Part shown: in pieces, positions 30,799-35,433 of the stretch | How positions within the stretch are numbered: position 1 is the stretch's first letter | How the letters are laid out: every line of letters begins with the position of its first letter | Assembly (NCBI GenBank): GCA_000146045.2 | Contig: BK006944.2 | Coordinates: 416,001 to 480,000 of the forward strand | Length of the DNA stretch: 64,000 nucleotides | Source: TPA_inf: Saccharomyces | Lineage: Eukaryota | Reading direction: 5' to 3' | The notes under the pieces: generated by a model | Told to the model about the DNA's origin: nothing | Seen by the model: the letters and a program-made list of their open reading frames with translations, nothing else | The model's database searches: none | Position numbers and translations under genes: made by a program

Positions 30799-32036
30799 CT
30801 AACTATCTGATTGTTCTTTCTTATTTTTATCCAAAAACTTATTTAAGAAAAGCTTTTTATAGCCAAAATGTGCAAAATTCACAGAAGTTAGAAGATCGTT
30901 TGAAAATTTCTCAGGTACTATTGGAGTATTATTTATCATTTTGATATGACCACTGTTCTCTTCAAAATTCAGAATTTCATTTCTCCAAGTCAATAAGACA
31001 GAGTCCATTTCAATTCTAAGGGTGATATTAAATTTCGTAATTTGCAGAAGACACAGATATGGAGGCCAATCTGCAGCATACGTTCGATCAATCCATTTTA
31101 CTAATTCCTGAGTAAATGCATCCGCAGGCTGTACTTGAAAATTCAAATCCACTTTATTTATCTTGAACGGAACATTAAAAGAGCTTGTTAGTCTTTGAAA
31201 ATCACGTATATTATCGGTTTTTTTTTCCTCCTGCTGGCATACCATATATGCTAATGCGCTCCATGAGGAACAATCCTTAACATTTTGAAAGCAAAATCTC
31301 TTAGTCAAATTGAAGAGCTCAATTCTTTTATTGTAAGGTAAATTATCGTAGAACCACCTAGCAGTATTCCAACAGTAGTAATTAGAGAAATGTTGGGATC
31401 CAGAAGAATGAAATACAAATAAAATATCTGGAAGAACCAGTGTATTAGCATCAAGAGATAAAACGAATAGTTTTCGGTATAATATCCAAAGAGATGACGA
31501 CTTGTTGATACGATTGTTTGATGAACAAAGAAGCCGTTGAATCAGTCTTACTTCTTTGACCAATAAATCCGGTATTACTAAAACACTGTTGTCCTGGAAG
31601 TATCTCTTGAGTAAATCTTCGTGTACATTATATACCGTTTTGTTTTCAGGTGTTGTAAGTAGAAATCCAACAGTCATGTAATAAATATTCTCATTAGAAA
31701 TGCCGCCTAATTTACATCAATATGTAGAATTGTTAGTAGCCGTAACAATGAATCCAAAATGCGTATTGTAAAATAGCAATAGTTTTTTGTATTTTACCGT
31801 TGAGACATACTTTGATCAGAGAAAGTTTTGTTAAAATATGTATGTGCTTCTTGGAAAAGAGATAAAAATGTTGTTTTGAAGATAATTAGTTCTATGGAAT
31901 GGGCTTTTTCGTCTACGTAGTAAGGGAGAGTAATTGAAGGCTGATTGGCAGTAATGGTTAACCTGAAATCATGATAATCTAAATATGCAGTTATTTTTTC
32001 AAAAAATTCTCTGCAAAGGGGAAGAGAAGATTGCAT
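30799..32036 (-). CDS. ECM9: Protein of unknown function (ECM9), 377 aa. Exons 32036..31811 and 31706..30799; intron 31810..31707 (104 nt).
   Basis: Two track ORFs (80 aa and 292 aa) on the minus strand are joined by a canonical intron: GTATGT at 31810..31805, TACTAAC at about 31738..31732, and the first downstream AG at 31708/31707. Exon 1 ends in phase 1 and exon 2 restores the frame (..FSDQ|SGISNENIYYMTVGF..). Total 1134 nt, 377 aa, which matches my recollection of ECM9 (YKR004C). Confidence 0.75.
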
Positions 32037-32520: not shown

Positions 32521-33957
32521 CTATTCTACACCAAGTTGTTGCGCCATTTTATCTAAGCTGATCCCCTTTTCTGGTATGCTTACAGGAAGAGAATAGAAAT
32601 ACTCTTCGTCAAATTCAACTTCGTCATCTGACCAATCGTTATCATCATCTGAGTCATCGATACTATGATCTCTAAAAGATACCCGCGACCGGTAAGAAAA
32701 CCCCAACATCATCAATGTAGTAATTGATACTGTGATGGCAGTGAATATGAAAATCCTTTTGTCTAATTGAGATGCCGCCGATATGAATTCACCAGAATCT
32801 AGTTCTGGTAAGTGCGGCACTTGCGAAAAGGTTGTAGAGAACAGTGTGGCCTGCTCATTAGCAGCGCCTGGATCAGAAATCTTATCTCTTCTTACTACTG
32901 TTGGTGTACCTCCTTCATCTGGTGAAGCGAGCTCACCATTAGCGCTAAAGAGACCAAAATTTATTCCCGCTTTTTTATTCAATCCATCCGGATTAAGTAC
33001 TGCTACTAACGACTTCGTTGCGATAGCATTTGTTGTCGTAGTAGTCGTGATACTCAAAAACGTCGAAGTTGCGGTACTTGTTACGATTTTAGTTCTTGGA
33101 AACCATCTTCTTTTGGCTTTTGTCGACGTGATTAAAGTCGTCCCTGTTTCAGTATCAGTCTTGGTCCTGTAAAACCTGTTCACTGTGGTTATTATTTTAG
33201 GACTTTGGTATTCATTCACTAAGTAACGAGTAAAAATTTTCTTTGGCCTCCAAGAACTCCACCTTGTCATATGAATTTCGGTGGCAGTGTGAAATAATGG
33301 GGCCTTCGTATTTCGTTCTTTTTTACTGCCACTTTTATCATCGGTATCCTTACTACAGTTTTCAGAACTAACTTTCTTGTTCTCATGGTATTCGATTTTA
33401 CCTTCCCACTTCTTATCTTTCACACTACAGTCACCGTCGTTTTCTTCTTCATAACCAGTAGCTGGAGACAGAGTTTTACCACTTATCGTTCTTTCGCGCA
33501 AATATTGAACTTCATTATTAGCGTCAACCACTTCGAACATGTCAACTGATGATATAGTCTTTTGATTATTGGTTAAAGAGGTTAATAGTGCAGAAATTAA
33601 TTGGTTTTTTTCGAACTGCAAAGGGTTCCTAAAAAGAGTATTGTTTTGACCAACGAAATAAGACAATTTTCTACTAGAAAATTTGTTGCCTCTAGGTTTC
33701 AAAATCTCTCCGTCATCTAAAACTCCATTTGTCAATTGAAATTGTTCAACAACGATCTGCAACTTGTCATACTCATCTTTGGAGGTACAGTAATCGTGAA
33801 AGCAGCTATTATTAAGGGAACTCAAGGCACACTGTAAACATTTGCAGTTATCCAAGTCCTCCATTGTTTCATTATTCACAGTAACGCATGACCGACAAAA
33901 TGCATATTGTTCATCAAAATAACGGGACACGCATTCACTTAAATTTCGTTTCTTCAC
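32521..33957 (-). CDS. Ser/Thr-rich protein of unknown function with one predicted TM segment near the C-terminus (YKR005C). The 5' end is uncertain: either the first ATG at 33864 (447 aa), or a 49-nt mini-exon 34069..34021 spliced to 33980 (502 aa).
   Basis: The long ORF (track: 478 aa) starts at GTG, and its first ATG is codon 32. Upstream, an ATG-initiated 49-nt segment ends exactly at a GTATGT (34020..34015), with a TACTAAT branch-like motif and an in-frame CTAG acceptor (33982/33981). The implied intron would be only 40 nt. Gene order matches YKR005C. Confidence 0.6.
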
Positions 33958-34422
33958 ATGGATCTTGTCAGTAATAAAATCTAGAGAATATTAGTACCTC
34001 GGTAAATTTGTTGTACATACGCAACTGGAGAGGAAGGGGGAAATCAGTTGTGAATTGTAACCTGGACATAAGTTAGGATCTGCCACAGTTTTGCTTTGAA
34101 CCGCTGCGAGAACGCTCCCACCACCACCGGCAAAGAGAACCAGCAGAGCGCTTAGACATTCCAACATTATCAGTATATCTCGTGTGTTCCTGCCTCTTGA
34201 TGATTTTAGCTAGCTGTAATGTGTAACGAATTATTCCCTTACTGCTTCTTGAGTTAGCCGCCAAAGAGGAAATATAGCCACAAAAAGAACTTACAGAAAA
34301 GATAAGGTAAAAAAAAAAAGTGATCTATAATGGGAAAGAAAAATCCAAACTTCTTCAAAGAGTATATATATGTACAGGATATTAAAATGTAATGATAGTA
34401 GTAATAATAGTATTAACATAAG

Positions 34423-35217
34423 CTAAGCGGATCTTGCTGTTTCCAAAGCTTTTCTTGTTGCATCATCCTCTAACTTTTGAATTTCTTTCATAATAGTATC
34501 ATATTTACTTTTTTGCTCTTTAGAAGTAACATCGTTAACAACATATATGTTTGGTGACGCGTAATTATCAGAAAATGGGTGGATAGCATTTGGCTCAGCT
34601 TCTTTATAAGCGAGTTTAGGATCGTTGGCAGATGGCAAAATTTTTTCCTTAATATACCTTTTAAACTGCAAGGGTGTGCTTAAAGTGGTCAGTTCATAAT
34701 CAGGAATTAGATAGCCAGATTTAGATTGCAAAAATTTGGTGAACTGAAATTTAGCTACCAAATCAGAGAATTGGACGTCCTGGTCTACTTTGCCCAATGT
34801 TTTTTCCGTTGCCTGCAATATCATATCATCTAACTGATTATCAGACGTAATCTTATCCCTGGATAACCACTGATTGAATGGCGCAGAGGAGACCGCAAGC
34901 TTCAACTCCTTCTGTCTCTTACACCGTCTAGACCCTTCGCCAATAAAATTTTCTGGTATTAGCTCCAATCTGTTTTTGTTATTGGAAGAGGATTGAGAGG
35001 AAGCCTCGTTAGTGCCTTCTTCAATATCCTTTATCAACTGTTTGGTGTCCTTGACAGGCTCTTGGTGCTCTTCTTGCTTCTTCCTCTTGAACCATGACAT
35101 AAAGTCCCCGTTTGCAGCGGAACTGTGAATACATCTGGCTTTCTGCTTGTAGCCAGAGAGCCAGACCGACCTTTGCGGCAATGGTCTAATACAATGTAAT
35201 TTAAGCAGTGACGACAT
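34423..35217 (-). CDS. MRPL13: Mitochondrial large-subunit ribosomal protein, 264 aa from the ATG at 35217. In-frame upstream ATGs at 35223 and 35250 would give 266 or 275 aa.
   Basis: The ORF is open back to the ATG at 35250 ([24 protein letters not shown]...). My recollection of MRPL13 (YKR006C) is 264 aa starting MSSLLKL, and the rest of the sequence matches. Confidence 0.8.
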
Positions 35218-35433
35218 CCTCATACTATGTCCGCCTTTCCGTCTACCCATTATTCACTTCAGGACTGATGATCAGGCATGCAGTTAATTTGACAGAAGTC
35301 GTTGTTTCACTATAAATTTGTCAGCTACCCGCCTCACCAGCAGCGATAAAGAACGAAGAATAAAAGAGAGCATTCACAGAGTACGAATCCAGTATAGCGG
35401 TAGTGGATACAACGACAGATTTAAGTCGTAAAA

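Follow-up and report, generated by a model that had tools for sequence, protein, structure and literature searches.

YKR005C of Saccharomyces cerevisiae as a two-exon gene: an upstream start codon and an already annotated 69-nt intron

Results

The window analysed here is a stretch of 64,000 nucleotides of Saccharomyces cerevisiae chromosome XI (contig BK006944.2), and a position in it equals the chromosome XI position minus 416000. YKR005C is encoded on the minus strand, between two genes of the same orientation. The next gene downstream, ECM9/YKR004C (30799-32036, minus strand), is also split: exon 1 runs from 32036 to 31811, a 104-nt intron (GTATGT...TACTAAC at 31738-31732...TAG) from 31810 to 31707, and exon 2 continues to 30799. 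The ECM9 product of 377 aa matches the 377-aa gene that has been called at this place in S. kudriavzevii and in further assemblies of S. cerevisiae. In ORF lists the gene is split into two ORFs of 80 and 292 aa. The upstream neighbour (34423-35250, minus strand) is an ORF of 275 aa; its orthologues contain the Pfam family Ribosomal_L50, and it is presumably MRPL13/YKR006C. The promoter of YKR005C is very compact, because the stop codon of this neighbour and the YKR005C start codon are only 255 nt apart.

The main ORF of YKR005C extends from a GTG at 33957 to the stop codon at 32521 (478 codons). We checked this ORF and found, as a preliminary description of the sequence had stated, that its first ATG is codon 32 (33864). 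To account for the missing start, that description placed upstream of the ORF a 49-nt mini-exon opened by an ATG at 34069-34067, followed by a 40-nt micro-intron with a GTATGT donor (34020-34015), a TACTAAT motif (33996-33990) and a CTAG acceptor (33984-33981), after which the coding sequence would resume at 33980. All of these motifs are present on the minus strand at the positions given. The arithmetic of the proposal is also right, since the 49-nt segment and the deletion of 40 nt leave an open frame of 502 aa in S. cerevisiae, but the same model is supported by none of the relatives described below. Failing such an intron, the protein was supposed to start at the internal ATG 33864, and the GTATGT was taken to be coincidental.

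Another ATG, at 34167 on the minus strand, 98 bases upstream of ATG 34069, had been missed. It shares the frame of the main ORF, with one TAA (33993-33991) between the two. In a six-frame view this ATG opens an ORF of 58 codons, and its first 49 whole codons stop exactly at the GTATGT at 34020. Two further AGs are in frame for ATG 34167. Splicing to the AG at 33965-64 removes 57 nt and gives a protein of 529 aa; splicing to the AG at 33953-52 removes 69 nt and gives a protein of 525 aa. The 69-nt excision, which ends with the AAG at 33954-33952, also takes out the sole in-frame TAA.

YKR005C is almost certainly a two-exon gene with ATG 34167 and the 69-nt intron, as it stands in the current S288C reference annotation. 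On the minus strand, the coding part of exon 1 occupies 34021-34167 (49 codons, 147 nt) and encodes the signal peptide and the start of the mature protein. The intron (GTATGT...AAG) occupies 33952-34020, corresponding to chromosome XI 449952-450020, with the 5' splice site at 34015-34020 and the 3' splice site AAG at 33952-33954. The coding part of exon 2 occupies 32521-33951 (476 codons and the stop codon) and includes a C-terminal hydrophobic segment at residues ~449-467. The proposed mini-exon is replaced by this exon of 147 nt, and the acceptor is the AAG at 33954-52 and not the CTAG at 33982/81.

Four candidate products were submitted to an exact-sequence look-up against about 15 billion database proteins. 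The 525-aa product of ATG 34167 and the 69-nt intron is identical, letter for letter, to the "uncharacterized protein YKR005C [S. cerevisiae S288C]", the reference protein. A slightly different member of its cluster is flagged "Precursor" in UniProt. The 447-aa product that starts at ATG 33864 with no intron removed was found as well; it is deposited as an older or automatic annotation (e.g. CAA46247.1 and AAS56641.1) and represents the original gene model of the 1990s. Neither the 502-aa product of the 40-nt intron nor the 529-aa product of ATG 34167 and the 57-nt intron is present among the ~15 billion proteins.

That the 5' end of YKR005C contains a spliceosomal intron, as the preliminary description had suspected, is shown by published junction reads and by conservation. 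S1 Table of Talkish et al. 2019 lists among the "standard introns" a 69-nt intron at chrXI 449951-450020, minus strand, under the name "Ares intron" (PMC6726248). The entry gives GTATGT, TACTGACA and AAG as the 5' splice site, branch point and 3' splice site. According to the tables of this study, the 69-nt intron is represented by 6, 10, 20 and 14 junction reads in four S. cerevisiae libraries, and the orthologous 71-nt intron of S. mikatae is spliced in RNA-seq with 1 junction read (S6 Table, PMC6726248). Within the portions of these tables that the analysis covered, the 69-nt junction is the only one given for YKR005C, and an excision of 40 nt does not appear. The same intron with the same coordinates is contained in a 2025 survey of intron structures (PMC12350175), and the synXI design paper treats YKR005C as intron-containing (PMC10667340).

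Kawashima et al. 2014 list YKR005C (GTATGT, AAG) without alternative junctions in the wild-type and in the upf1, upf2 and upf3 deletion strains (PMC3983031, Table S4). The power of this negative result is limited, because the gene was expressed at only 4.3-8.1 RPKM. In the same study the YKR005C mRNA was 1.5-1.9 fold up in upf mutants. The read support for the 69-nt intron itself is small, with counts of 6-20 (PMC6726248), and expression is low, at 4-8 RPKM (PMC3983031). The Prp18 paper on 3' splice site fidelity has no YKR005C entry in its supplements.

We compared the window with the DNA of six relatives, namely L001, L003, S. kudriavzevii, S. arboricola, S. eubayanus and S. uvarum. L001 has 82% nucleotide identity to the window and is presumably S. 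paradoxus. The intron of L003 is identical to the S. mikatae intron given in S6 Table of PMC6726248, and we refer to this sequence as S. mikatae below. Exon 1 is 147 nt long without gaps in seven of seven sequences, and its amino acid identity in the six relatives is 63-90%. For five of the six relatives, exon 1 and exon 2 do not share a frame and can be joined only if an intron is removed. The introns of the seven sequences measure 69, 71, 71, 71, 75, 73 and 73 nt. In every one of them a single acceptor, an AAG or TAG orthologous to 33954-52 and located 3' of the branch site, reopens the frame. Protein-level conservation in all species also includes the 31 codons that precede ATG 33864. Eight other S. 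cerevisiae assemblies do not differ from the window in exon 1 or in the intron and therefore give no information on the choice of branch point.

The GTATGT at 34020 had been proposed as a 5' splice site, and this assignment is correct; the hexamer is conserved in all the relatives except S. uvarum, which has GTACGT. By frequency the hexamer is unexceptional, with 31 copies observed in the window and 24.6 +/- 5.0 expected, an enrichment that is not significant. We take the copy at 34020 as real because of its context and conservation and not because of the hexamer frequency. With a GUAUGU 5' splice site, a frame-restoring AG 3' splice site and a length of 69 nt, above the known minimum of 52 nt, the YKR005C intron is an ordinary canonical U2-type GT-AG spliceosomal intron.

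The model with a 49-nt mini-exon and a 40-nt intron is extremely improbable. Its acceptor has a good 3' splice site sequence (UAG) and is the first AG after TACTAAT. However, ATG 34069 is only the third AUG, after those at 34167 and 34159, and the N-terminus that it would encode has no conserved signal peptide. This ATG (34067-34069, minus strand) is not a start codon but an out-of-frame triplet that spans the Leu-Cys codons TTA TGT of exon 1. The position reads ATG with a TTA or CTA codon for Leu (S. cerevisiae, L001 and S. mikatae) and GTG with a TTG codon, as in the other four species, so that it varies like a synonymous third position of the real frame. The comparison with sister species that had been suggested as a check on this ATG thus went against it in four of six relatives. 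Over the final 49 nt of exon 1, substitutions at the three codon positions number 7/4/11 in the frame of ATG 34167 versus 11/7/4 in the frame of ATG 34069.

The acceptor of the 40-nt intron fares no better. The CTAG (33981-33984, minus strand) is an intronic AG with no sign of use; it is missing from L001 and S. arboricola, and the other four relatives have it 5' of their conserved TACTAAC. Used together with ATG 34167, it causes a frameshift and a stop after 57 aa. The distance from the 5' splice site to the branch point in the 40-nt intron is 30 nt, below the minimum of roughly 40 nt that Thompson-Jaeger and Domdey reportedly found in 1987. An intron of 40 nt would also be shorter than the shortest known yeast intron, that of MATa1 with 52 nt (PMC4712674), whereas the actual intron of 69 nt is inside the normal yeast range and sets no record. 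The absence of the 502-aa product from the databases, of alternative junctions from Table S4 of PMC3983031 and of any but the 69-nt junction from the covered portions of the PMC6726248 tables likewise speaks against this model. The in-frame pairing of ATG 34069 with the CTAG is coincidental.

The opposite reading, in which there is no intron and translation starts at ATG 33864, has hardly any probability left. Its 447-aa product has been deposited, as noted above. Against it stand the junction reads published in the tables of PMC6726248, the protein-level conservation of exon 1 and of the 31 codons before ATG 33864, and the conservation of the 5' splice site, the branch point and the frame-restoring acceptor. 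The GTATGT is therefore no coincidence, and the preliminary description was right to doubt the internal ATG.

A third possibility is that a minor fraction of the transcripts uses another 3' splice site, either the CAAG at 33965-64 (57-nt intron, 529 aa) or the CTAG at 33982-81, whose 57-aa frameshifted product would make the mRNA an NMD substrate. Both AGs are intronic, the 57-nt version is in frame, and the increased mRNA level in upf mutants would fit an NMD substrate, although unspliced pre-mRNA could equally explain this increase (PMC3983031). Nevertheless, we consider such use very unlikely. The respective junctions were not detected in the four strains of that study, and the databases do not contain the 529-aa product. 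The CAAG lies 4 nt from the likely branch A, and the AG that matches it in the other species is out of frame or runs into a stop. As a model of the gene, the 57-nt intron was rejected; it is in frame in S. cerevisiae only.

Two motifs within the 69-nt intron, each one base off the UACUAAC consensus, come into consideration as its branch point, and one of them must serve. TACTGAC (33967-33973, minus strand; branch A at 33968) is separated from the 5' splice site by 53 nt and from the 3' splice site by 16 nt. For TACTAAT (33990-33996, minus strand), these distances are 30 nt and 39 nt, respectively. Published sources are at odds over the two. [quoted passage not shown] The main texts of Qin 2016 (PMC4712674) and Gould 2016 (PMC5029451) mention neither motif.

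The alignment of the seven introns suggests that TACTGAC, with the A at 33968, is probably the branch point. Five species (S. mikatae, S. kudriavzevii, S. arboricola, S. eubayanus and S. uvarum) have a perfect TACTAAC at the aligned position, 15-17 nt upstream of the conserved acceptor. TACTGAC is accordingly at the ancestral TACTAAC position, and TACTAAT occurs only in S. cerevisiae and L001. From this pattern, the lineage of S. cerevisiae and L001 appears to have lost the consensus branch point through an A to G change; it also has the upstream near-consensus motif. With TACTGAC as the branch point, the AAG at 33952 would be the first usable AG. The CTAG would be ignored because it lies upstream of TACTGAC, and the AG at 33965-64 would stay unused because, 4 nt after the branch A, it is too close.

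With the same exons and the same intron, branching could also occur at the A of the upstream TACTAAT (33991). The spliceosome would then have to skip a UAG at +10 and an AAG at +27 and use the AAG at +39. This reading is possible but rather unlikely. In addition to the listing of YKR005C among introns with U at position 7, it can draw on the fact that UACUAAU retains the ACUAA core and that the C7U variant is bound by Msl5 (PMC4338336), as well as on the presence of the motif in both S. cerevisiae and L001. However, only 30 nt separate the motif from the 5' splice site, and its conservation ends with these two closest species, whereas the position of TACTGAC is occupied by a perfect TACTAAC in five; moreover, it is TACTGACA and not TACTAAT that S1 Table of PMC6726248 assigns. 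Use of TACTAAT also requires that the two skipped AGs be hidden, and the region has no stable structure.

We rejected RNA structure as a means of masking the skipped AGs. The fold of 34030-33940 has an MFE of -7.2 kcal/mol and is weaker than that of shuffled sequence (z = +1.58); an equally good or better fold was obtained for 193 of 200 shuffles.

Upstream of the gene, a URS1-like (Ume6-type) element with the core GGCGGCTAA is present at 34254-34262 on the minus strand, 95 nt upstream of ATG 34167. Conservation of the sequence CTTTGGCGGCTAA extends to seven of seven Saccharomyces sequences, where it lies 95-99 nt before the exon-1 ATG, and in S. cerevisiae ATG 34167 is the first ATG downstream of the element. 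YKR005C has been reported as a Ume6 target that is induced late in meiosis (bioRxiv 10.1101/2023.04.09.536185). The conserved element fits this reported regulation by Ume6 and in meiosis, and it may well be functional at YKR005C.

The N-terminus encoded by exon 1 is hydrophobic. Mean hydropathy of the first 22 residues is 1.77 from ATG 34167 versus -0.08 for the N-terminus that begins at ATG 34069. The two most hydrophobic 19-residue windows of the 525-aa protein start at residues 5 and 449. A SignalP-6.0 likelihood of 0.9993 for a signal sequence in YKR005C has been published (PMC11583750). Hydropathy, SignalP, the URS1-like element and the Ume6 report together lead us to infer that transcription starts upstream of 34167 and that ATG 34167 is used. 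A cleavable, conserved signal peptide would have been lost with the 49-nt mini-exon.

Discussion

The steps by which the YKR005C protein would be produced can be outlined as follows. Transcription would start upstream of ATG 34167, behind the conserved URS1-like element. The 147 nt of exon 1 (34167-34021) encode a signal peptide of the cleavable kind, followed by the beginning of a cysteine-rich ectodomain. The spliceosome removes the 69 nt from 34020 to 33952 and, with them, the only in-frame stop, the TAA at 33993-91. Exon 2 (33951-32521) completes the protein of 525 aa, which has a hydrophobic segment near its C-terminus in addition to the signal peptide. Expression is low in vegetative cells and reportedly induced in meiosis.

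The feature in the window does not differ from the annotated YKR005C intron of S288C ("Ares intron", chrXI 449952-450020). The preliminary description expected that either of its outcomes would refine the gene model. Neither does, because the reference annotation is already correct; the intron is known, it is included in every standard list of yeast introns as well as in the reference annotation, and its recognition here adds nothing to the gene model. What the case illustrates is that a sequence-only reading can take the wrong ATG and the wrong AG around a genuine splice donor. The error was resolved by checking for an in-frame upstream ATG and by comparison with sister species.

The intron resembles other short, 5'-proximal introns in meiotic and non-ribosomal-protein genes of S. 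cerevisiae, such as that of ECM9/YKR004C and those of MATa1, which are 52-54 nt long. These likewise begin with GTATGT, and in such genes a small, single intron lies near the start codon. Short S. cerevisiae introns have a branch point of the UACUAAC type 10-40 nt from the 3' splice site, and YKR005C probably does too. Unlike the short canonical introns, YKR005C has a branch point that is one base off (UACUGAC or UACUAAU) and a 3' splice site that is AAG and not YAG. Both deviations have precedents in yeast introns, as one-base branch-point variants (PMC4338336) and several AAG 3' splice sites (PMC3983031, Table S4) are already on record. The other introns annotated with UACUAAU are those of SCS22, HRB1 and GMC2, and YKR005C, which has the motif at 33996-33990, is listed alongside them (PMC4338336). 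It may differ from these three, as the comparative data point to the downstream TACTGAC as a possible functional branch point in place of UACUAAU.

The disagreement between UACUAAU and UACUGAC is the only point of specialist interest that remains at this locus, and the comparative data favour the ancestral position. It is conceivable, but quite doubtful, that the lineage of S. cerevisiae and S. paradoxus is undergoing a turnover of branch points, in which UACUAAC has changed to UACUGAC and a new UACUAAU has arisen 23 nt upstream. If both were used, the upstream branch point together with the proximal UAG would yield a frameshifted, non-productive mRNA, and the choice between the two branch points could tune the output of this meiosis-induced gene.

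The YKR005C protein is fast-evolving, with 46-72% identity among Saccharomyces species. A Pfam scan of the 525-aa protein gave no significant family (UBA_4, with E = 0.066, misses the cut-off), and a protein sequence search of 5.8 billion proteins detected no relatives outside Saccharomyces. The syntenic gene AEL289W-A of Ashbya gossypii is annotated as a YKR005C homologue (PMC3737163). The protein has 11 Cys in its first 110 residues, a Thr/Ser-rich middle part and, behind the hydrophobic segment, an acidic tail.
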